This document shows, piece after piece, positions 1-12,542 of a stretch of DNA of 34,930 nucleotides. Below the pieces are notes generated by a model, which saw only the letters and a program-made list of their open reading frames with translations, was not told the DNA's origin and did no database searches. Positions within the stretch are counted from its first letter, which is position 1; each line of letters begins with the position of its first letter. The position numbers and the translations under genes were made by a program. Origin of the DNA: Candidatus Caenarcanum bioreactoricola (GTDB taxonomy: Bacteria > Cyanobacteriota > Vampirovibrionia > Caenarcaniphilales > Caenarcanaceae); contig MOYB01000006.1 in the NCBI GenBank assembly GCA_001899385.1, forward strand, positions 3,832 to 38,761, read 5' to 3'.

Positions 1-478
1 TTGCTCCTATATAAAGCCCAGAAACAGAAAGTATTCCCGAATCAAAAATCGAAAAAAGTCCTCGCCATAATTCATCTTCTGGATTTCTTCTAGGTTTGTT
101 TGAAGTTTCTTTAATTTTAAAAGGAATAGGTTTTTTTGAAGCCGATTTTATTCCTATATTTTCTTTGTAATATTCATTAAATTGATCTTTTTCTAAAGTT
201 TTTAGATATTCTTTATCAGATCTTTCAAAAATTTTATTTATAACATAACCACGAGTTAATCCTCCTAAAGCTGCCCCCATACCTGCTAATATTAATGCAT
301 AAAAAGCGATTTCTCTAATAACATGTTTAAATCCTTTCCAAAAACTTATTTCTTTAGATTTTTTTTGCTTTTCTTCTTCTTTAGCTAAATTAAAATTATT
401 AAATGTAGAATTCCTATATCTATATGAAGCTTTTAACACTCTATTTACAACTTTATTAATAGTTAAATATTTGTTCAT
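1..478 (-). CDS. Hypothetical membrane protein, partial (runs off the left edge; absent from the supplied ORF track)
   Basis: Read manually: ATG at 478 is open to position 1 (MNKYLTINKVV...EIAFYALILAGMGAALGGLTRGY...LSVSGLYIGA). It has one clear hydrophobic segment and a consensus promoter upstream. Confidence 0.8.
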   Translation of the reverse strand, partial: MNKYLTINKVVNRVLKASYRYRNSTFNNFNLAKEEEKQKKSKEISFWKGFKHVIREIAFYALILAGMGAALGGLTRGYVINKIFERSDKEYLKTLEKDQFNEYYKENIGIKSASKKPIPFKIKETSNKPRRNPEDELWRGLFSIFDSGILSVSGLYIGA

Positions 479-498
479 AAATTTATCTTAATATTAAA

Positions 499-528
499 AT
501 TATAGATAAATTAAAATAGTATTGTCAA
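499..528 (-). promoter_or_regulatory. Sigma70-type promoter TTGACA-N18-TATAAT for the partial ORF at 1..478
   Basis: Both hexamers are perfect consensus on the minus strand (-35 at 523..528, -10 at 499..504), 20 nt upstream of the ATG. Confidence 0.75.
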
Positions 529-557
529 TAAAAACTTAGAAAATTTTATATATTTAA

Positions 558-1118
558 TTACCAATTTATAATTTTTTCAGTTAATTTAGGCACACTATCA
601 AAAATAGAATCATTAGGATATAAATTTCTTTGTTCACTTGGGTTTGTTTTACGTCCTTTAATATCTTCAAATCGACCTAAATGTGAAGTTAAAGCTATGT
701 TTATAGTTGAAGTTGCTTCTTCAAAATCATCACACATTGACATTCCATCCATTAAACCATAAAAAATTAAAATTGGCTCATGAATTATTTGATCTGTAGT
801 TTCATCAAGTAATGCAAAATAAATTTTTAAAGGATTATATACAAACTGTTCTGTTAATACTAAAGCTTTTATATTTTTATCTAAACCACTTAAACTTATT
901 TCACTTTGTACTGCTTCAAATTTATTTGTTTCTTCAATTTCTCCTATAGATAAAAGATGTCCTGCTGAAATATATTCATTATTATTCCAAATTAAATTTC
1001 GTGAAAAATTAGTTAATCTAACTATACCTGTATCCCAAAAACCTTCTACAAGATTAATTGCAGAAGTATTTAGGCTTTTTAATTTATTTGAAATATTTTG
1101 ATCTATAATTTTTGGCAT
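558..1118 (-). CDS. Siphophage-type tail tip / baseplate hub-like protein (DUF2163 / lambda gpL N-terminal-like)
   Basis: Motifs WNNNEYISAGHLLSIGEIEE, EISLSGLD, IFYGLMDGM and EQRNLYPNDSIFDSVPKL..K.INW are typical of the small hub gene that follows Dit. Its start overlaps the Dit stop by 1 nt. Confidence 0.75.
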   Translation of the reverse strand: MPKIIDQNISNKLKSLNTSAINLVEGFWDTGIVRLTNFSRNLIWNNNEYISAGHLLSIGEIEETNKFEAVQSEISLSGLDKNIKALVLTEQFVYNPLKIYFALLDETTDQIIHEPILIFYGLMDGMSMCDDFEEATSTINIALTSHLGRFEDIKGRKTNPSEQRNLYPNDSIFDSVPKLTEKIINW

Positions 1119-1717
1119 TAGTTAAATACCTCCTCAAATTCAAGAGCCCAAGAAGCTTTTTTATGTAAATCCAGATTTAGACTTATTTCATCTTTAGTAT
1201 TGGCAACTGTAAAATCTACATCATTATAAATAATAGTTTCATCTTTTATTGGTATTTGTATAAGATTAGGAATAATAGTTAAATAGCCACAACCATTTGA
1301 ATCAGAATATAAGTCCTCTTCTATTTGATATACTTTTTTATGTCCGCTAAACCGAATAAAATCCCCTGTTGCAAGAATTTTTTTATTTGCCTCCATTCCA
1401 TAAACAGAGATTATTCGACCACTTTGATTGTCTAAATCAACTTTTATTTCCCCTTTATAATTAGTTTTAGTTGATGAATAATAAGGAATTATAATTTTAA
1501 AAGATTCATATCTTCCTCGTCTTGCATTTAAAAAAGCAAATATTTCATCGTGTTCTTGTCTAGACTTTCTTAAAAGTTCTATTGATATTTGCCAATAAGC
1601 GCCTCCAAAACTAGTTGCTTGTCTATATCCTGATTGAGATCTACATATTCTAGTATTGAATGTTGATTTAATTGAAGCCCCTGTTATTGAATAAAGTGGA
1701 AAAATTTTATCTGTCAT
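1118..1717 (-). CDS. Distal tail protein (Dit), T5 pb9-like
   Basis: Motifs SQSGYRQ..FGGAYWQISI, IFAFLNARRGRYESF, GDFIRFSGHKKVYQI and LTIIPNL; about 200 aa; lies between tape measure and hub in canonical gene order. Confidence 0.75.
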   Translation of the reverse strand: MTDKIFPLYSITGASIKSTFNTRICRSQSGYRQATSFGGAYWQISIELLRKSRQEHDEIFAFLNARRGRYESFKIIIPYYSSTKTNYKGEIKVDLDNQSGRIISVYGMEANKKILATGDFIRFSGHKKVYQIEEDLYSDSNGCGYLTIIPNLIQIPIKDETIIYNDVDFTVANTKDEISLNLDLHKKASWALEFEEVFN

Positions 1718-1738
1718 AAATTATTCTTGTCTGTTATG

Positions 1739-1756
1739 AAATGACTATAACAAAAG
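1739..1756 (-). promoter_or_regulatory. Putative tail-gene promoter motif, copy 1 (minus strand CTTTTGTTATAGTCATTT, extended -10 TGnTATAGT)
   Basis: 15/18 identical to 4392..4409; the TATAGT hexamer ends 26 nt upstream of the Dit ATG. Confidence 0.6.
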
Positions 1757-1813
1757 CTGTTTTTAAATCTTGAATATAGCTTATAATTTTTAAAGATTTT
1801 ATTAAATAAAATA

Positions 1814-2938
1814 ATGTTTAAAGAAATTTCAATTCAGAATCTTAGAGGAATAAAAGAATTAAAGATTGATGATTTTGCACAAATTAATTTATTTCTTGGA
1901 AAAAATAATAGTTGTAAAACAACAGTCCTAGAAGCTTTATATTGTGCAATTAATCCTAGTAATCCTAGTCTTCTTACTAATACAAATATAATTAGAGGTT
2001 TATTAAACACTACTAAAATTGAAAATATAAATAAAACATCAAGGTTTTCTATGGAATCTCTTTTTTATAATTTAAATACAGAAAATCCTCTTCAAATAAA
2101 TTCTGTTTTTAATTTCTTGGAATTAGAACAAGAAAAACAAAATATTATAATTACTGCTTTAAAAGATATTATTAGTTCTTCTGAAAAATCCTCGTCATCA
2201 ATTTCAACAGCATTAATAGAAATAATAAAAGGTTTAAATTTTTCTTTTGAAATTATTAAAAATAAAAGAAAAAAAGAAAAATTTGAATCTATACAAATTT
2301 TAAAAGAAAAAGAAATATTTGAAAATAAAATAGATGAAAAATATTTAAAATATGCAAATCAACGAAATGGTTTTTATTTATTTTCTCATATAGCAAATGA
2401 TCTTATAAATTCAGATTTAAAAAGTAAATTTGACAATATTCTTTATCAAAAGAAAGAAAAAGAGCTTATTGATAATTTTAAAAAACTAATACCTGAAGTT
2501 CAAGCAATTAAATTTCTTGATGCTTTTTATATTGATATAGGTTTACCTAAATTAATTCGTTTAGAATCTTTAGGAGAAGGAGCTAAAAAGTTTTTTGTAT
2601 ATATTTGTCGCTTATTAGGTGATGAGAGTTTAAAAGAGAATTCTATTATATTAATTGATGAAATAGAGAATGGTATATATTATGATTCTCAAAAAATTCT
2701 TTGGAAATTTTTATTTAATTTTGCTAAAGAGAAAAAAATTCAGATTTTTGCAACAACACATTCTATAGATTGTATAAAGGCATTTGTTGAAATTGCAGAA
2801 GAAGAATCAAAAAAGAAAGAAGATTTAATAAGAATATTTAGATTAATTAAAGGAGAAGATAATGTTTTTGATATTTCAAAATATAATCTCACTTCTGCAA
2901 AAATTATTTTAAATGAATACAATTTGGAGATTCGTTAA
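1814..2938 (+). CDS. ABC-type ATPase (AAA_15/AAA_21 family; AriA-like sensor of a putative defence or toxin-antitoxin pair)
   Basis: N-terminal ISIQNLRGIKEL, Walker A variant GKNNSCKT, signature SLGEG, Walker B ILIDEIENG and H-loop ATTHS. Confidence 0.85.
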   Translation: MFKEISIQNLRGIKELKIDDFAQINLFLGKNNSCKTTVLEALYCAINPSNPSLLTNTNIIRGLLNTTKIENINKTSRFSMESLFYNLNTENPLQINSVFNFLELEQEKQNIIITALKDIISSSEKSSSSISTALIEIIKGLNFSFEIIKNKRKKEKFESIQILKEKEIFENKIDEKYLKYANQRNGFYLFSHIANDLINSDLKSKFDNILYQKKEKELIDNFKKLIPEVQAIKFLDAFYIDIGLPKLIRLESLGEGAKKFFVYICRLLGDESLKENSIILIDEIENGIYYDSQKILWKFLFNFAKEKKIQIFATTHSIDCIKAFVEIAEEESKKKEDLIRIFRLIKGEDNVFDISKYNLTSAKIILNEYNLEIR

Positions 2939-3598
2939 ATGAAAAAAACAAAATTTCTTTTAGTTGAAGGTTCTGATGATAAAAGTTTTTTTCAACAGTT
3001 TTTTGAATCTTTAAAAATTGATTATGAAAAAGAAATAGAAATTATAGAAATGAAAACTAAATATACTAAAACAGTTGAATGGAAAGAAAGATTAAATGCT
3101 ATTAAAGAAAAATTTAAAGAAGAAAATAATATATTAGGAATAATTGTTGATTCAGATAATAAATTAGAAAAAACAATTAAGGATATTCAAGCTGCTTTTA
3201 ATGAACTTGATATTAAAGAAACAATAGAAAATCAAAAATTTATTAAAATAAACGAAAACCTAAAGATTGGACTTTTTATTTGTGAACCACGAGATTTAGA
3301 AAGTCTTTGTCTTAATATTATTAAAGAAAATTCTCCTTCTGAATTGAAAGAAATTCAAGATTTTTTAGATAAGAAAAAACAAAAACATAAAAAGATTTAT
3401 CATGAAGAAAAAAAAGATTTACAAGCATATTTAACTTATAAACAATTTATAGAGGAAAAATCAGAATTTCAATTATTTTTAGCAACACAATATAATTATA
3501 AATTTGCTTATTCCCCTGGAACCGCATCACAAAAAGGCTATATAAAATTTGATTTATTCAAGGATTTAAAAAAATTTTTAGAGAATTTTAGATCTTAA
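2939..3598 (+). CDS. TOPRIM-like protein (DUF3226/DUF4435-like; AriB-like partner of the ATPase)
   Basis: LLVEGSDD (TOPRIM glutamate), IIVDSD (DxD) and DLESL motifs; starts immediately after the ATPase stop (TAA-ATG). Confidence 0.75.
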   Translation: MKKTKFLLVEGSDDKSFFQQFFESLKIDYEKEIEIIEMKTKYTKTVEWKERLNAIKEKFKEENNILGIIVDSDNKLEKTIKDIQAAFNELDIKETIENQKFIKINENLKIGLFICEPRDLESLCLNIIKENSPSELKEIQDFLDKKKQKHKKIYHEEKKDLQAYLTYKQFIEEKSEFQLFLATQYNYKFAYSPGTASQKGYIKFDLFKDLKKFLENFRS

Positions 3599-3599
3599 T

Positions 3600-4367
3600 C
3601 TATTCAAAACTTGATCTGTTTAGTTTTTTATTTGAAGTTTTTTGAACTGTTTTAATTGTGTTTGCTCCTAAATATTTTTGAACTTCTGTTTTAGATAAAG
3701 CTCTAATAGTATCTTGTGAATCCATTGCACTTATATTTATAACTACTGAAGAACTTGCTCCTAAAGTCCTTGTATTTTCTTTAGTTAAAGCACTTTTAGG
3801 TATTATTTGCCCAGATGTTTTAGGTACAAAAATTTCTGCTTCTTTTTCTCCTACTATATAAGCACTGTTAGAAGAAACTGGTCCTCCATCCGCACGAAAT
3901 CCACCAAAGATCCCCCCTAGCCCACCAAGTAAGCTGCTAAAAATACTTCCACCAGCGCTACCACCTCCACCACCAAAAAGTCCTGCTAAATTAAAACCTC
4001 CAGACATAGAAGAACTTAATCCTTGAATTAAACTATTTGCAATTGAACTACTTATTGATTCAGCAACCCCTGCAAATATATTAAACATTGAACTAGCAAA
4101 CTCTCTTAAATTAAACTCACCAGTTTCAATTGCACTACAAATAGAATTTTTTAAAGTATTTCCTATTTGATTTGAAATACTTAAAATTTCATTAAAACTT
4201 TTTTTAAAATTACTAGTTTGATTAAAAGTTTGACTTAAGTCAACAGTTTGATTTTTAAAAAAAGATGAAGTTGTTTTTAATTCGTTTTGAGTTTGAGCTA
4301 GTTTAATTTTAAAATCTTCATTATCAGCTTTAATTTTTATAACTAATTCTTCTATTTCTTGAGCCAT
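3600..4367 (-). CDS. Short phage tail tape measure protein (GTA-like size, 255 aa)
   Basis: Typical TMP N-terminus (EELVIKIKADNEDF), helical middle, Gly-rich segment and conserved C-terminal motif GFRADGGPV...YIVGEKEAEIFVPKTSGQIIP...VVINISAMD. Confidence 0.85.
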   Translation of the reverse strand: MAQEIEELVIKIKADNEDFKIKLAQTQNELKTTSSFFKNQTVDLSQTFNQTSNFKKSFNEILSISNQIGNTLKNSICSAIETGEFNLREFASSMFNIFAGVAESISSSIANSLIQGLSSSMSGGFNLAGLFGGGGGSAGGSIFSSLLGGLGGIFGGFRADGGPVSSNSAYIVGEKEAEIFVPKTSGQIIPKSALTKENTRTLGASSSVVINISAMDSQDTIRALSKTEVQKYLGANTIKTVQKTSNKKLNRSSFE

Positions 4368-4391
4368 TTTATTAATAATTAAGTTAATACT

Positions 4392-4409
4392 AAAGGACTA
4401 TATCAATAG
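4392..4409 (-). promoter_or_regulatory. Putative tail-gene promoter motif, copy 2 (minus strand CTATTGATATAGTCCTTT)
   Basis: 15/18 identical to 1739..1756; the TATAGT hexamer ends 29 nt upstream of the TMP ATG. Confidence 0.6.
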
Positions 4410-4493
4410 GGCTTTCATTATAAATTTTTTAAATTGTACTAAGTCTTAATTTTTAAGGGAATAAATTTAGAAGAAATAAAAACACAAAGTTCA

Positions 4494-4838
4494 ATGAAAA
4501 AAATAATACTTTTTACTTTAACTTTTTTATTAGTTTTAGGCATTGTTGACCTAATTAAAGCAGAGCCTTTTAATTTTTATGAAAGTCCTTACTTCGGAGT
4601 AAAAGAAGAAGTTTATGAATATTATACTCCAAAGAGAATAACCCCTTTAATAGCTCAATTACCAGAATATTCAATGAGGGGACCAGGTTATATTTGTGAT
4701 AAGAGACAAGCTTCTCCTGTTTATCGTTATCCTTTACAATATAATAGACATATAGGTTATAGAGAAGCAGACTGGGCTAAAAACACTCTTTATGATAATG
4801 GCATTTTTCCTGTAAATTTTGGTGGCTACACTTATTAA
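4494..4838 (+). CDS. Small exported hypothetical protein, Tyr/Pro-rich
   Basis: Sec-type signal peptide (MKKIILFTLTFLLVLGIVDLIKA); 114 aa; 3' end overlaps the convergent CDF gene. Confidence 0.7.
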   Translation: MKKIILFTLTFLLVLGIVDLIKAEPFNFYESPYFGVKEEVYEYYTPKRITPLIAQLPEYSMRGPGYICDKRQASPVYRYPLQYNRHIGYREADWAKNTLYDNGIFPVNFGGYTY

Positions 4839-5718
4839 GTTTTAAACATTCATTATTACAAGGCTCAGTATGAATAGTAACAGAAGAGTTAAATAAAATA
4901 TTTTTAAGTTCTATTTCTATTTCATCACAAATAATATGTGCTTCTTTTATTCTTAAGCCTTTAGGCAATACAATAGTAAATTCAATAAATTTATTAGGAC
5001 CAGATTTCCTAGTTTTAAGATTATTAAAAGAGATTATTTTTTGTATAGAACAATAGGATTTTAGTATTTTTTTTATATCTTCTAGATTAGCTTTAGAGAG
5101 AGAACTGTCAAGAATATTTTTAGAAGAATCAATACAAAGATTCAATCCGGCTTTTATTATTAAAAGTCCAACTAAAATAGCTACAATTGGATCAAATATT
5201 TTAATTCCAGTAATTTTTATACAAATTAAAGCAATAAGTACTCCTGCAGAAGTTATAACATCAGTACGTAAATGTTCAGCATCTGCATGAAGTGCTATTG
5301 AATCCGTTTCTTTTGCAACTTTAAAAAGATATTTACTAACTAAGATATTTGCAACAATAGAAATACTCATTACAATAATGCCTAAAAAAGAATCAATATA
5401 ATCAAAATTTTTATTTATTAATTTTTCTACTGATTCATAGATTATATAAAAAGCAGCTAAAATAATAAGAAAACCTTCAATAAAACCAGATACTTCTTCA
5501 AATTTACCATGTCCATATTGATGATCTTCATCTGCTGGATTTGAAGAGATTTTTACCGCAATAAAAGCAATAAAAGACGCAAGTAAATCAACAAGAGAAT
5601 GTACTGCTTCTGAAATTATACTTATACTATTTGTAAAAATTCCTACAATAAGCTTTGATAAAACTAAAATTGTATTAGAAATTATTGAAATTCCTGCGGC
5701 TTTAATTTTATTATTCAT
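4777..5718 (-). CDS. Cation diffusion facilitator transporter (FieF-like)
   Basis: SEAVHSLVD, PADEDHQYGHGKFE, ADAEHLRTDV, C-terminal dimerisation domain (EAHIICD, TIHTEP), six TM segments. Confidence 0.93.
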   Translation of the reverse strand: MNNKIKAAGISIISNTILVLSKLIVGIFTNSISIISEAVHSLVDLLASFIAFIAVKISSNPADEDHQYGHGKFEEVSGFIEGFLIILAAFYIIYESVEKLINKNFDYIDSFLGIIVMSISIVANILVSKYLFKVAKETDSIALHADAEHLRTDVITSAGVLIALICIKITGIKIFDPIVAILVGLLIIKAGLNLCIDSSKNILDSSLSKANLEDIKKILKSYCSIQKIISFNNLKTRKSGPNKFIEFTIVLPKGLRIKEAHIICDEIEIELKNILFNSSVTIHTEPCNNECLKLNKCSHQNLQEKCHYHKECF

Positions 5719-7547: not shown

Positions 7548-10500
7548 ATGGTAACTATTAATTCTTCTAGATCTACTAATAATCTAATTTTAAATGGGAC
7601 TGCTCAAATTGATTATATCTATGGAGGTTCTGGCAACGATTATATTTATGGAGGCTCTAATAATGATTATTTATATGGTGGATTAGGTAGCGATTATTTA
7701 GATGGTGGCTCAGGTAATGATAAAGTATATGGTGGAGCTGGTGATGATGAAGTATATGGTGGTTCTGGCGATGATTACTTAAAAGGGGATGCTGGTAATG
7801 ATAAAATATATGGTGGCTCTGGTAATGATTATTTATATGGTGGAATAGGTGATGATTATTTAAATGGTGGCTTTGGTAATGATAAATATGTATATAAATT
7901 TGGAGAAGGTAATGATGTTATTAAAGACTATGATGGAATAGACAGCTTAAATCTTAGTACTTTAATAGGTAAAGTTGAAGGAATTATACAAAATGGAAAT
8001 AATTTTGAAATTGAATCAACAATTTGGGTTAAAAATGGAAATAATTTAATTTTAAATTTTGATACAAACAGTAAACTTACAATTAATAATTATTATCAAA
8101 CAGGAAATATTGAAAATATAATTTTAAAAGAAATTCCAAATGAAGCTCCTGTATTTGTTGGAGATAAAACTGCTGAAATAAATGAAGGTGCTTTATATAC
8201 TTTTACAAGCACTAATTTAAACTTAACAGATTCTGATAATACTCCTTCACAGCTTACATATACAGTAAGTAATTTAATAAATGGTCAAATTTTTATAAAC
8301 GGTACAGCTTCAAATAATTTTACACAAGAACAAATAAATAATGGACTTGTTAGATTTATGCATAATAATTTACAAACTGGAGAATCTAGTTTTGATTTTA
8401 TTGTTAGTGATGGAAAAAATACTTTAGATTCTCAAAAATTTAATTTTACAGTTAATCATGATAATGATACTCCTTTATTTACTGGGGATAAGACTGCTGA
8501 AATTAACGAAGGTGCTTTATATACAATTACAAATATTGATTTGAATACAACAGATATAGATAATACTTCTTCACAACTTGTTTATACTGCAAGCAATTTA
8601 GTAGCTGGTAAAATACTAGTTAATGGAATAACTTCTAATAGTTTTACACAAACTCATATAAATAATGGCTTTGTTAAATTTGTACATAATGGCTCTGAAG
8701 CTGAAAGTGCAGGTTTTGATTTTATTGTTAGTGATGGAACAAATACTTTAGATTCTCAAGTTTTCAATTTTATAATAAATCCAGTTAATGATGATCCTGT
8801 GTTTTCTGGAGATAAGACTGCTGAAATTAACGAAGGTGCTTTATATACAATTACAAATACTGATTTAAATTTAACAGATCCTGATAATACTCTTGATGAG
8901 CTTACATATACCGTAGATAATTTAGTTAATGGACAAATCTTAGTTAATGGGGTAGCTTCTAATAGTTTTACACAAGCACAAATTAATGCAGGACAAGTCA
9001 TCTTTCAACATGATGATTCTGAAACTACAAATGCAAGTTTTCAATTTCAATTTGATGATATAGATGGTTCTTCTGCTCCTATTATGCCTCAGATCTTTAA
9101 TTTTACTGTTAATCCAGTTAATGATGATCCTGTATTTTCTGGAGATAAAACAGCAACAATAGATGAAGGTGGATTCTATATACTTACAAATGCTGATTTG
9201 AATTTAACAGATCCTGATAATACTCCTGATGAGCTTAGTTATACTATAGACAATTTAGTTAATGGACAAATCTTAGTTAATGGGGTAGCTTCTAATAGTT
9301 TTACACAAGCACAAATTAATGCAGGACAAGTTATATTTCAACATGATGATTCTGAAACTACAACTGCAAGTTTTCAATTTCAATTTGATGATATAGATGG
9401 TTCTTCTGCTCCTGTTATGCCTCAAACTTTCAATTTCACAGTTAATCCAGTTAATGATGATCCTGTATTTTCAGGAGATAAGACTGCTGAAATTAACGAA
9501 GGTGCATTATATACAATTACAAATACTGATTTAAATTTAACAGATCCTGATAATACTCTTGATGAGCTTAGTTATACTATAGACAATTTAGTTAATGGAC
9601 AAATCTTAGTTAATGGTGTAGCTTCTAATAGTTTTACACAAGCACAAATTAATGCAGGACAAGTCATATTTCAACATAATGGCTCTGAAACTATAACTGC
9701 AAGTTTTCAATTTCAATTTGATGATATAGATGGTTCTTCTGCTCCTGTTATGCCTCAAATCTTTAATTTTACTGTTAATCCAATTAATGATGATCCTGTG
9801 TTTTCTGGAGATAAGACTGCTGAAATTAACGAAGGTGCTTTATATACAATTACAAATACTGATTTAAATTTAACAGATCCTGATAATACTCTTGATGAGC
9901 TTACATATACTGTAGATAATTTAATTAATGGACAAATCTTAGTTAATGGGGTAGCTTCTAATAGTTTTACACAAGCACAAATTAATGCAGGACAAGTCAT
10001 ATTTCAACATAATGGCTCTGAAACTACAAATGCAAGTTTTCAATTTCAATTTGATGATATAGATGGTTCTTCTGCTCCTGTTATGCCTCAAATCTTTAAT
10101 TTTACTGTTAATCCAATTAATGATGATCCTGTGTTTTCTGGAGATAAAACAGCAACAATAGATGAAGGTGCTTTATATACAATTATAAATACTGATTTAA
10201 ATTTAACAGATCCTGATAATACTCTTGATGAGCTTACATATACTGTAGATAATTTAATTAATGGGCAAATTCTAGTTAATGGTGTAGCTTCTAATAGTTT
10301 TACACAAGCACAAATTAATGCAGGACAAGTCATATTTCAACATAATAGCTCTGAAACTACAAATGCAAGTTTTCAATTTCAATTTGATGATATAGATGGT
10401 TCTTCTGCTCCTGTTATGCCTCAAATCTTTAATTTTACTGTTAATGATCTGCCTTTATTTTCTGGTGATGGAACTATTGAAATTAAAGAAAATACCTCTT

Positions 10501-12542
10501 ATATAATCACAAATTCTGATATTAATGTAATAGATTCTGATACGCCTTTAAATGAAATTAATTATAAAATAACTACTAGTTTAGGTTCTTTAAATCCTAT
10601 ATTAGTTCAAAAATGGAATGGAAATGAATGGATAAATAATGATAGCTTTACACAAGCTGATATAAATAATGGTTTTGTTAGATTACAACATGATGGATCT
10701 GAAGCGTTAACAAGTATTGATTTTTATCTTATATTTGAAGATAATTTTGCTGAAAATATTCAAGTTGAACTTTTTAATATTAATGTAAACCAATTTAATG
10801 ATGTAAATAATAAAGCTATAAATGATTTTCTTATTTCTACAACTAATACAAATAATCAACGTTTTCCAGAAATAAGAAGTTTATCAAATGGTAATTTTGT
10901 TGTTGCTTGGGAAAGTTATGATAATGGAAGTGATTCTAATATAAGAGGACGAGTATTTAATGCAAATGGAACTCCTCTTAATGCTTCTGATTTTCTTATT
11001 TCTACTTCTAATATAGATAATCAACAAAATTTAGAAATAATAAGTTTAACAAATGGTAATTTTGTTGTTACTTGGGAAAGTTATGATAATTACAATAATA
11101 CTTCTGCGGATATAAGAGGACGAGTATTTAATGCAAATGGCACTGCTATTAATACCTCTGATTTTCTTATTTCTACTTCTAATGCAAATCTTCAAATGGA
11201 GCCAGAAATAACAAGTTTAACAAACGGTAATTTTGTGGCTACTTGGCAAAGTTATGATAATGGAAATGATTATAATATAAGAGGAAGAGTATTTAATGCA
11301 AATGGAACAGCTATTAATGCTTCTGATTTTATTATTTCTACTTCTAATACTTATAATCAAGAGGAGCCTGAAATAAGAAGTTTATCAAATGGTAATTTTG
11401 TAGCTACTTGGATAAGTTTTGATAATGGAAATGATTATAATATAAGAGGAAGAATATTTAATCCAAATGGAACAGCTGTTAATGCTTCTGATTTTCTTGT
11501 TCCTACAAGTAACATCTATAATCAACTGAAGCCAGAAATAACAAGTTTATCAAATGGTAATTTTGTGGCTACTTGGTTAAGTTCTGAAAATGGAGCTTAT
11601 TATGGAATAAAAGGAAGAGTGTTTAATGCAGATGGAACAGCTCTTAATGCTTCTGAATTCTTGATTCCTACAAGCAATTTTACTTCTGATCCTTATGTTC
11701 AATGTTATCCTAAAATAACAAGTTTAACAAATGGTAATTTTGTTGTTACTTGGGGAAGTCTTGATAATGGCTCTAATTGTGATATAAGAGGAAGAGTATT
11801 TAATGCAAATGGAACTCCTCTTAATACTTCTGATTTTCTTGTTTCTACTTCTAATACAAATGATCAATATTTTCAAGAAATAACAAGTTTATCAAATGGT
11901 GGTTTTGTTGTTGTATGGGGAAGTTCTGATAATGGTTCTAATAAAGTAAGAGGTCGTATTTTCAATGCAGATGGCAGCGCTCTTAGTACTTCTGATTTTA
12001 TTATTTCTACTTCTAATTATTATAATTGGTATGAACAAAATTTAGAAATAACAAGTTTATTAAATGGTAATTTTATTGTTACTTGGGAAAGTGCTAATAG
12101 TACTACTGGTCTTGATATAAGAGGACGAATGTTTAGTGCCGATGGTACTCCTTTAGGTGATTTAACAGGTATAGGTACAACAGCTAATGATCTTCTTGTA
12201 TCTCAAAGTACTTTAAAAGATACTCTTATTGGTGATGCAGGCAATGATCTTTATATCTTTAGAGATACTTTTGGTAATGATATCGTAAAAGATTCTGCTG
12301 GTATAGATTCTATGGATCTTAATGATTTTGCATATTCTACTGCTGTATTCACTCGTCAAGAAGGAAATGCTAGCACTGGAGATGATTTGTTGATAAGTAT
12401 AGGAGCTAATGGAAGTATTCTTATAGAAAATTATTTTGCGGAAGATTCTGTAAATACTGCTGGTACTGGATATATAGAAGATATAGATTTTATGGGAATG
12501 CAAAATGTTGATGTAGCTCACATTGCTACATTAGGATTATAA
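7548..12542 (+). CDS. Large RTX-family surface adhesin: N-terminal Ca-binding GGxGxD repeats, 8 cadherin-like/CSPG-type repeats, 8 beta-propeller-like repeats, C-terminal RTX cap
   Basis: GGSGNDYIY-type nonapeptides; NDDPVF...DPDN...FTQAQINAGQVIFQHD repeats; NGNFVVTW...IRGRVFNANG repeats; no Sec signal, consistent with type I secretion. Confidence 0.9.
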   Translation: MVTINSSRSTNNLILNGTAQIDYIYGGSGNDYIYGGSNNDYLYGGLGSDYLDGGSGNDKVYGGAGDDEVYGGSGDDYLKGDAGNDKIYGGSGNDYLYGGIGDDYLNGGFGNDKYVYKFGEGNDVIKDYDGIDSLNLSTLIGKVEGIIQNGNNFEIESTIWVKNGNNLILNFDTNSKLTINNYYQTGNIENIILKEIPNEAPVFVGDKTAEINEGALYTFTSTNLNLTDSDNTPSQLTYTVSNLINGQIFINGTASNNFTQEQINNGLVRFMHNNLQTGESSFDFIVSDGKNTLDSQKFNFTVNHDNDTPLFTGDKTAEINEGALYTITNIDLNTTDIDNTSSQLVYTASNLVAGKILVNGITSNSFTQTHINNGFVKFVHNGSEAESAGFDFIVSDGTNTLDSQVFNFIINPVNDDPVFSGDKTAEINEGALYTITNTDLNLTDPDNTLDELTYTVDNLVNGQILVNGVASNSFTQAQINAGQVIFQHDDSETTNASFQFQFDDIDGSSAPIMPQIFNFTVNPVNDDPVFSGDKTATIDEGGFYILTNADLNLTDPDNTPDELSYTIDNLVNGQILVNGVASNSFTQAQINAGQVIFQHDDSETTTASFQFQFDDIDGSSAPVMPQTFNFTVNPVNDDPVFSGDKTAEINEGALYTITNTDLNLTDPDNTLDELSYTIDNLVNGQILVNGVASNSFTQAQINAGQVIFQHNGSETITASFQFQFDDIDGSSAPVMPQIFNFTVNPINDDPVFSGDKTAEINEGALYTITNTDLNLTDPDNTLDELTYTVDNLINGQILVNGVASNSFTQAQINAGQVIFQHNGSETTNASFQFQFDDIDGSSAPVMPQIFNFTVNPINDDPVFSGDKTATIDEGALYTIINTDLNLTDPDNTLDELTYTVDNLINGQILVNGVASNSFTQAQINAGQVIFQHNSSETTNASFQFQFDDIDGSSAPVMPQIFNFTVNDLPLFSGDGTIEIKENTSYIITNSDINVIDSDTPLNEINYKITTSLGSLNPILVQKWNGNEWINNDSFTQADINNGFVRLQHDGSEALTSIDFYLIFEDNFAENIQVELFNINVNQFNDVNNKAINDFLISTTNTNNQRFPEIRSLSNGNFVVAWESYDNGSDSNIRGRVFNANGTPLNASDFLISTSNIDNQQNLEIISLTNGNFVVTWESYDNYNNTSADIRGRVFNANGTAINTSDFLISTSNANLQMEPEITSLTNGNFVATWQSYDNGNDYNIRGRVFNANGTAINASDFIISTSNTYNQEEPEIRSLSNGNFVATWISFDNGNDYNIRGRIFNPNGTAVNASDFLVPTSNIYNQLKPEITSLSNGNFVATWLSSENGAYYGIKGRVFNADGTALNASEFLIPTSNFTSDPYVQCYPKITSLTNGNFVVTWGSLDNGSNCDIRGRVFNANGTPLNTSDFLVSTSNTNDQYFQEITSLSNGGFVVVWGSSDNGSNKVRGRIFNADGSALSTSDFIISTSNYYNWYEQNLEITSLLNGNFIVTWESANSTTGLDIRGRMFSADGTPLGDLTGIGTTANDLLVSQSTLKDTLIGDAGNDLYIFRDTFGNDIVKDSAGIDSMDLNDFAYSTAVFTRQEGNASTGDDLLISIGANGSILIENYFAEDSVNTAGTGYIEDIDFMGMQNVDVAHIATLGL
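7596..7890 (+). repeat. Tandem 27-bp RTX nonapeptide repeats (about 11 units)
   Basis: Recurring tatggtggctctggtaatgat-like units encoding YGGxGxD. Confidence 0.9.
8133..10445 (+). repeat. Intragenic tandem array: two diverged 324-bp units (8133, 8457) plus five near-identical 333-bp units (8781, 9114, 9447, 9780, 10113)
   Basis: Unit starts ccagttaatgatgatcct / ccaattaatgatgatcct recur at exact 333-bp spacing; a diverged eighth unit follows at about 10446..10790. Confidence 0.95.
10824..12158 (+). repeat. Eight tandem repeats of about 165 bp (about 55 aa), probable beta-propeller blades
   Basis: DFLISTSN..NQ..PEI.SL.NGNFVVTW.S.DNG....IRGRVFNANGT counted 8 times. Confidence 0.9.

Follow-up and report, generated by a model that had tools for sequence, protein, structure and literature searches.

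Two similar promoter-like boxes in front of separated tail genes

The DNA analysed here is a stretch of 34,930 nt (hereafter the window) from contig MOYB01000006.1 of Candidatus Caenarcanum bioreactoricola (positions 3,832 to 38,761 of the forward strand). Two separated units of phage-type tail genes are located on its minus strand, the one encoding a distal tail protein (Dit) and a tail hub-like protein, and the other a short tape-measure-like protein (TMP). Each unit is preceded by an 18-bp box built around the hexamer TATAGT. The features around the two boxes are the following.

499..528, minus: canonical promoter TTGACA-18-TATAAT with 12/12 matches, ahead of a 178-aa membrane open reading frame (ORF) at 2..478
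558..1118, minus: tail hub-like protein, 186 aa (phrog_2048 tail protein, 3.5e-29)
1118..1717, minus: Dit, 199 aa (phrog_1302, 1.5e-24)
1756..1739, minus: promoter box of Dit, CTTTTGTTATAGTCATTT, 18 bp, with TTTG, the hexamer TATAGT at 1749..1744 and C as the next base
1760..1764, minus: A-tract, 11-15 nt 5' of the Dit hexamer, a weakly evidenced part of the extended class consensus
1814..2938, plus: AbiLi-like AAA ATPase (AbiLi 1.3e-51, PDC-M38A 1.9e-45, AAA_15/AAA_21)
2939..3598, plus: AbiLii / PDC-M38B-like partner (PDC-M38B 2e-11, AbiLii 4e-4, DUF3226 1.3e-15, OLD-type TOPRIM-like)
3600..4367, minus: TMP, 255 aa, alone in its unit (phrog_10574, 3.8e-16)
4409..4392, minus: promoter box of TMP, CTATTGATATAGTCCTTT, 18 bp, with the hexamer TATAGT at 4402..4397
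about 4413..4415, minus: AAA, the TMP counterpart of the A-tract

The two boxes are identical at 15/18 positions, and TATAGT is placed 26 nt from the ATG at 1717 in the case of Dit and 29 nt from the ATG at 4367 in the case of TMP. In all these respects the sequence-only reading of this DNA, from which the work started, proved accurate. Both boxes contain the exact core TTGnTATAGT, with TG one base ahead of the hexamer. The same reading described them as extended -10 elements devoid of a -35, which is right for the TG in both and for Dit, where a consensus promoter scan gives no -35, but not entirely for TMP, where the scan finds, besides the TG, a weak -35 (TTTATA) at a 16-nt spacer. It had not noticed the motif in other intergenic regions, and no other exact copy of the 18-bp consensus exists within the window. 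The 14-base core CTWTTGWTATAGTC occurs at just these two places in the 1.84-Mb draft genome, a circular count since the consensus was taken from the Dit and TMP sites themselves.

The hub gene is assigned to the Dit unit because its start overlaps the stop of Dit. Weaker matches of Dit are DUF2460 (8.8e-6, below the cut-off), the pb9 B-domain (0.0015) and, in the PDB, a weak one to T5 pb9; a PDB sequence search with the hub protein was without match. The 255-aa ORF of TMP resembles the C-terminal part of tape-measure families, several of which match it.

The unit of TMP is separated from that of Dit by an AbiL-like defence pair on the opposite strand (1814-3598), consisting of an AbiLi ATPase followed by an AbiLii partner, the AbiLii match itself being weak. 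The pair has its own TATAAT (1782..1787, plus), 26 nt ahead of the ATG, and is placed outside the promoter class treated below. The perfect TTGACA-18-TATAAT at 528..499 of the minus strand is the promoter near 523 with which the boxes had been contrasted; it indicates that the host uses canonical promoters, and the Dit-hub unit ends there. The 178-aa membrane ORF behind the hub gene is followed by a 141-aa ORF with coiled-coil and transmembrane features (L001 3315-3740, minus), and neither of the two has a family. The remaining window carries ordinary chromosomal genes (FtsH, ArgJ, OTCase, FliH and an RTX protein), and an Rfam scan of positions 1-5000 gave no match.

The resemblance of the two boxes was evaluated against 20,000 random pairs, sampled among 824 real upstream regions in the same genome. 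A similarity of 15/18 was reached by 13.0% of the pairs at any offset, and by 1.9% when the compared segments were within 5 nt of equal distance from the start codon. Weighting by base rarity (the upstream DNA is 80% A+T, with a background A of 0.41) resulted in P = 0.012 at any offset and P = 0.0017 when position was restricted (3,000 pairs). Taken as an isolated pair, the boxes depart only modestly from expectation, with P between 0.13 and 0.002 according to the null chosen, and the decisive evidence is the distribution of the motif in the genome.

Distribution of the motif in the genome

The draft genome consists of 67 contigs, is 91% complete and includes 103 kb of N. In order to scan it, the motif was relaxed to the extended -10 core TTGnTATAGT. 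There are 45 such sites against 54 expected from base composition, and thus no global excess. A simple ORF map places 29 of them in ORFs, 14 in non-coding DNA and two at an ORF edge. Among the 16 non-coding or edge sites, three (C2, C25 and C65) fall in short or alternative-start ORFs missed by the map and two adjoin N stretches. The other 11 lie 6-37 nt 5' of an ORF start and are oriented to it, a position in which about 0.7 sites would be expected (Poisson 2.6e-10).

Of the genes behind these 11 sites, nine are single-copy chromosomal phage genes; of the remaining two, the one encodes a 114-aa protein with virus-like neighbours and the other is a virion-like gene on the phage-like contig C66. 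A recognisable housekeeping gene is found behind none of the 11.

The same association was obtained in a strict control set of eight phage-like units and 816 other genes, chosen for an ORF length of 100 aa or more, an ATG start and a non-coding upstream stretch of no less than 70 nt. TTGnTATAGT is present 5-40 nt before the start in 7/8 phage-like units and in 0/816 of the others (Fisher 1.6e-16), whereas TTGnTATAAT is found in 0/8 and 11/816, respectively. TATAGT alone precedes 8/8 phage-like units and 22/816 other genes. The housekeeping extended -10 promoters of this genome read TATAAT: a permissive list of TTGnTATAAT sites includes, downstream, rpsK, an Ile-tRNA synthetase-like gene, ffh, thioredoxin, rplI and a tRNA, as judged by N-terminal sequences only.

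These counts bear on a rival explanation of the pair, namely that two AT-rich upstream regions match by chance. Random pairs do reach 15/18 fairly often when any offset is allowed, and base composition suffices to account for the overall count of TTGnTATAGT. Nevertheless, the weighted and position-restricted comparison gives a low P, the promoter-positioned copies exceed expectation by far, and the downstream genes that can be annotated are all phage-like. The genome-wide association already contradicts a chance match, to which we give practically no credence.

The sequence-only reading had proposed that the motif could serve as a barcode for the rest of the regulon, to be sought by its enrichment upstream of phage structural genes. 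The enrichment is evident from the above, and the scan with the core recovered a complete head, neck, tail and lysis gene set (see below). An independent test was provided by a search of the genome for structural families of Pfam in which the motif was not used. Phage_portal was found in one place (C34:127.5 kb), its ATG being preceded by AAGATATAGT with a 6-nt spacer. Phage_connect_1 and Phage_HCP were also found in one place (C1:139.2 kb), as a two-gene unit behind CATTTTGTATAGTA (TTTTG-TATAGT), 30 nt from the ATG. The single place of Phage_capsid is the gene behind the protease. Structural genes located by family alone thus carry near variants of the motif, and the proposed barcode is supported. 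Altogether, 12/12 chromosomal units have TATAGT, exactly as TTGnTATAGT in 10/12 and as near variants in 2/12 (portal, and connector with head closure).

A negative control is offered by contig C8, on which a TerS-like ORF, a large terminase (TerL) and a 1602-aa TMP are contiguous. Its sole TTGnTATAGT is inside an ORF, and the box is absent from its TerL. C8 (30 kb) and C66 both have the appearance of independent phage genomes, or of prophages, that were binned together with this genome.

Very large ORFs are found at C67:14068-26019 (about 3,980 aa) and C1:169673-172786. They repeat ...GGF(V/A)(I/V)TWYS... units, each with an in-frame TTGGTATAGT, and several of the motif hits inside ORFs are due to these repeats. 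In the window, a 1664-aa ORF (7548-12542, plus) is accompanied by a regular series of short antisense ORFs: two of 81 aa are 333 bp apart, and ORFs of 50 aa recur at the same spacing. Identical 18-mers are located 165 bp apart in it, at 11264 and 11429. These features point to a giant, putatively surface-type protein with internal tandem repeats.

The dispersed particle genes and their promoter class

The sequence-only reading had spoken of two separated tail segments. Both are real, but the description was too narrow, as the genes of the whole particle set are distributed over 12 units at 11 regions of six contigs (C1, C12, C23, C34, C45 and C56). In addition to the Dit-hub unit, the TMP unit, the portal and the connector with head closure, the set comprises the following.

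C45: large terminase TerL (phrog_2, 5e-28)
C23: prohead protease, then HK97-type capsid (Peptidase_S78, 4e-29; Phage_capsid, 2e-68)
C34: HK97-gp10-like tail completion protein (HK97-gp10_like, 1e-10)
C12: tail tube (Phage_tail_2, 9e-7), then a 113-aa putative chaperone
C34: DUF6950 protein (DUF6950, 6e-10)
C23: J-like tip protein, 1072 aa (phrog_31, 7e-82; T5 pb3, 2e-20)
C23: M15 lysin (Peptidase_M15_3, 2e-12)
C1: ORF of 114 aa, no family; its Atlas neighbours are dominated by viruses (score 0.95-0.96, TM 0.83-0.88), which is a lead only

The structural genes of a complete tailed-phage head, neck and tail are all present. The closest solved relative of the capsid is Rcc01687, the capsid of RcGTA, the gene transfer agent (GTA) of Rhodobacter capsulatus (3.4e-67). 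The nearest Atlas models of the 113-aa protein include tail-assembly-chaperone clusters, again as a lead only. All unit genes are intact and, for the families searched, single-copy, with no stops inside the matches, and the GC content of the units, overall and at third codon positions (GC3), is within the host range.

Units sharing a contig are 40-145 kb apart, with the exception of TMP and Dit, which are 2.7 kb apart. Their neighbours are mostly chromosomal genes of ordinary function. For instance, TerL is next to the biotin synthase BioB, the portal is flanked by a PrmC-like methyltransferase and glycogen phosphorylase, and the J-like gene by TruA and an RTX protein. The gp10-like gene adjoins aminopeptidase P, the lysin is flanked by a flavoprotein and an Fe-alcohol dehydrogenase, and a heptosyltransferase precedes DUF6950. 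A CDF transporter is also among the immediate neighbours, and the other neighbours are without a phage family, except for one RNase H phage-family match.

Such a set could not be packaged as a single genome, and it lacks an accompanying module for replication or integration. The pattern of a decaying prophage, in which genes are clustered, truncated or frameshifted and an integrase or att site is close by, is not seen. On these two grounds, the set is read as a domesticated GTA-like element.

An alternative is that the units stem from one or several dead prophages and are now in decay, with the motif as a functionless leftover of phage late promoters. In its favour are the lack of conservation seen in relatives, the small terminase, holin and regulator that were not identified, and the defence pair inserted between TMP and Dit. 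On the contrary, no canonical function of head, neck or tail is missing or duplicated, and each is encoded by an intact ORF of normal length, in DNA of fully host-like composition and amid housekeeping genes in a genome of 1.84 Mb. Prophage decay normally leaves clustered and truncated remnants, not a complete dispersed set with matching promoters. We regard this origin as improbable.

A few further loci may be mentioned next to the set. At C45:98040-98916 (L023 about 2040-2914), TTGATAAAGT, one mismatch from the class core, is followed by GGAGATTAAAAACTATG, a leader shared with the tube and protease units, and then by three ORFs of no family: one of 86 aa has hydrophobic stretches, one of 100 aa starts like a signal peptide, and one of 96 aa resembles a coiled coil. 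This region may be a lysis cassette or other accessory unit of the set. Directly 5' of the 114-aa ORF (C1:283112-284732; L003 4113-5733), two ORFs of 195 and 339 aa, also of no family, are located. In the former, TATAGT is 9 nt from the ATG, and both could belong to the set or regulate it. Four units (tube, J-like, gp10 and TerL) share a purine-rich leader, RAGATTAAAA(A)CT, the end of which is 0-3 nt away from the ATG; in the protease unit the same string begins at the TTG start codon. The pattern has 20 hits in the genome, several of them away from gene starts, and was not used in the argument.

A 324-aa virion-like gene on C66, with an exact TTGATATAGT 18 nt ahead of it, was considered as a member and set aside, C66 (38.9 kb) being itself phage-like, with its own terminase, primase/helicase, methyltransferase and TnpB-like ORF.

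When the 12 units are aligned on the hexamer, the consensus is AAAAa-N4-TTTG-W-TATAGT-(C/A). The key -10 bases T1, A2 and T6 are present at promoter distance in every unit, the hexamer being TATAGT in 12/12. TG is found one base 5' of it in 10/12 units; the portal has AG, and in the connector unit the TG abuts the hexamer. T occupies each of the three positions ahead of the G in 10-11 of the 12 units, and A is found at positions -14 to -10 from the hexamer in 10, 9, 9, 8 and 7 of 12 units, respectively. Beyond about 25 nt there is no similarity between units, which argues that their promoters are not recent copies of one segment.

Between hexamer and start codon, ten units have 22-37 nt, and the other two, portal and DUF6950, have precisely 6 nt. 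The latter distance corresponds to a feature of the whole genome, in which TATAAT-N6-ATG forms a sharp peak (14 cases, each of the other spacers up to 20 nt having 1-10), as is expected for mRNAs beginning at the A of ATG. The peak suggests that leaderless mRNAs would be common in this organism. The exact leaderless spacing of TATAGT in two units is an indication that the hexamer acts as a -10 element.

The spacing is also relevant to another possibility, that the box is primarily a recombination or insertion site which moved the genes, and not a promoter. A box at the 5' edge of every relocated unit would suit such a site. The distances from the start codons, including the two leaderless ones, are nevertheless those of a -10 box, the 3' ends have no matching repeat, nothing beyond the box is conserved, and a recombinase gene is absent among the annotated neighbours. 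Such an origin appears very improbable.

More weight attaches to the view that these are ordinary housekeeping extended -10 promoters without a dedicated regulator. TATAGT would then be inherited, either from ancestral phage promoters or from one promoter copied as the genes moved, or it would reflect selection for weak constitutive expression. TGnTATAGT does meet the requirements of an extended -10 through the contacts of sigma-70 region 3.0, the host uses both TGnTATAAT and TTGACA/TATAAT promoters, and the search for a reader protein came up empty. What this view explains poorly is the G of the hexamer, kept in 12/12 units amid surroundings that have diverged to the point of being unrelated. 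Drift should have yielded TATAAT variants. At 132 generic TGnTAnnnT sites in promoter position, G is found at position 5 in 9% and C after the hexamer in 10%, and the logo has no conserved flanks. The C and the G are therefore not general features of the genome, and none of the 816 other genes of the strict set has TGnTATAGT in promoter position. We consider ordinary promoters an unlikely explanation, albeit one deserving some weight.

A proposed promoter code and its known counterparts

Probably, in our judgement, the two boxes belong to a genome-wide promoter signature carried by a domesticated GTA-like (viriform) gene set, the operon of which has been broken up while co-expression is kept by a class-specific promoter code. 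The association of the sequence with these genes, the positions of the sites and the gene identities are observations; that the set forms a particle is predicted from its genes.

The Dit and TMP boxes would be core promoters of the form TTTG-W-TATAGT-C, with an A-tract about 12 nt further up and no usable -35. TMP and Dit with its hub represent two of 12 chromosomal units under one signature, scattered singly or in pairs among housekeeping genes, and the units together encode, once each, a complete HK97/RcGTA-like head, neck and non-contractile tail, a lysin and a small virus-like protein. RNA polymerase is expected to start about 7 nt after TATAGT, near 1737 (minus) for Dit and 4390 (minus) for TMP. 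Since the housekeeping holoenzyme should read TGnTATAGT alone, the invariant G, the T-run, the C and the A-tract may serve a dedicated factor. The G at hexamer position 5 and the conserved flanks would let this factor switch the whole set together. Candidates would be an activator or repressor that overlaps the -10 and works on the housekeeping holoenzyme, or a sigma-like protein needing only the -10 region. The sequence-only reading had likewise suggested a dedicated sigma factor or activator.

Several points weigh against this interpretation. The start sites and the co-expression are predictions. A single G at the least constrained position of the -10 is a thin basis for discrimination, and the housekeeping sigma factor should read TGnTATAGT unaided. 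None of the seven sigma-70-family genes of the genome adjoins a unit, and TATAGT is not found in the 120 nt upstream of the six that are mapped, the seventh (C65:4994) lying outside the ORF map. A GafA-like DUF6456 protein gave no match at E <= 0.1 in this 91%-complete genome, while the Caulobacter control matched. Neither a small terminase nor a holin was identified in the set. Most units were found via the motif, which introduces ascertainment, though their annotation is independent of it. The exact site on phage-like C66 places one copy of the motif outside the chromosomal set. The two exact non-coding sites C1:11628 (plus) and C1:309444 (minus), both TTGTTATAGT, have no gene start nearby and cannot be judged, as they border N. 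Lastly, no relative carrying the element was found among eight same-family, 300 same-class and 400 same-phylum genomes.

In the eight same-family genomes, there was no match to Dit or the capsid, and the portal had one weak match below the cut-off (E 2.5e-5, in G001). Dit had no match in the 400 genomes of the same phylum. In the 300 of the same class, the capsid had matches in six, at 23-41% identity; five of these were searched again and, as all are without Dit and a weak TerL match was seen in just one, they were read as ordinary prophages. An exhaustive protein search with Dit retrieved 589 relatives, the best at 49% identity, whose contigs are in Logan, ENA and JGI, and the best capsid match anywhere is at 45% identity. 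A word-indexed protein search with Dit returned only itself, a scan of viral contigs with the hub protein found nothing, and a scan of metagenome contigs with query P0004 gave 138 pattern hits, none of which was confirmed. The FtsH of the window, scanned against genome contigs, had matches at no more than 45-57% identity, spread over many phyla.

A more specific proposal, to which we lean slightly less than to its contrary, is that this may be an independent and undescribed GTA-like viriform of an uncultured, low-GC, flagellated Gram-negative lineage. Its entire structural genome would have been fragmented into one- or two-gene units around the chromosome, and its regulon would be held solely by a dedicated AAAA-N4-TTTG-W-TATAGT-C code and the factor that reads it.

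Known GTAs hold their head-tail genes in one operon; here a complete and intact set is fully scattered, with the same signature on each piece. If the set is functional, domesticated phage particles would need no operon integrity, surveys based on clustering would miss such elements, and a short cis-code could list a whole viriform gene set, including accessory genes and the regulator. It would also provide a natural system for how one base of a -10 hexamer can define a regulon.

RcGTA comprises 24 genes at five loci, with its head-tail genes in one co-transcribed cluster (PMC5026251, PMC5721377), and GafA binds near the -10/-35 of its promoters and contacts the omega subunit of RNA polymerase (PMC9638019). 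The set described here resembles RcGTA in being a phage-derived head-tail set unable to package itself, placed at several loci with shared promoter-proximal sites. The functional order from TerL to the J-like protein also matches g2-g15, the tape measure being short (255 aa). It differs from RcGTA in that the 15-17 head-tail genes of the latter form one cluster, as opposed to 12 units here. In addition, no GafA/DUF6456 homologue was found in this genome and DUF2460 remained below the cut-off, the tail-tip proteins are nearer to T5 pb9/pb3 by sequence, and there is no placement of the host among the Alphaproteobacteria, its own class having only 11 families in the sample. Outside the Alphaproteobacteria, according to PMC5721377, most taxa have few and scattered RcGTA homologues, and functional RcGTA-type GTAs have been conjectured to be mainly alphaproteobacterial because the cluster is co-transcribed.

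VSH-1 of Brachyspira is encoded at two loci (PMC5026251), and in BaGTA of Bartonella antitermination is reported to integrate the loci (bioRxiv 10.1101/2024.11.20.624540). The likeness is that of domesticated phage genes at more than one locus which need integrated expression. Unlike the present case, theirs are two or a few multi-gene loci under antitermination or other regulators, and they are not known to use a repeated -10-type box. The literature searched (including PMC9254644, PMC5026251, PMC5721377 and PMC9638019, without supplements) describes neither a fully dispersed GTA nor this motif; supplementary locus maps may bear on the 'scattered' homologues.

The defence pair between the two tail units has a counterpart in AbiL, in which an AAA ATPase is likewise followed by a small DUF3226/TOPRIM-like protein, the AbiLii match being weak. 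The class of boxes, on its part, shares with housekeeping extended -10 (TGn) promoters the TG one base before TAnnnT, the weak or absent -35 and a fitting distance from the start. It is distinct from housekeeping TATAAT promoters in the invariable TATAGT, the T's before the TG, the frequent C that follows and the A-tract upstream.

Phage late promoters can be read via a -10-like element alone, a typical example being T4 gp55 with TATAAATA, and in polydnavirus-producing wasps dispersed viral genes keep viral promoter motifs. Both cases are analogies of logic only, the one for a short code in the -10 region through which a dedicated factor coordinates structural genes, and the other for such genes when scattered in a host genome; the motif differs, a sigma-like reader was not identified in the present genome, and the wasp is a eukaryote. 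If the more specific proposal is true, the element would parallel, in a bacterium, the scattered viral genes of these wasps, and would have the most fragmented GTA architecture known.

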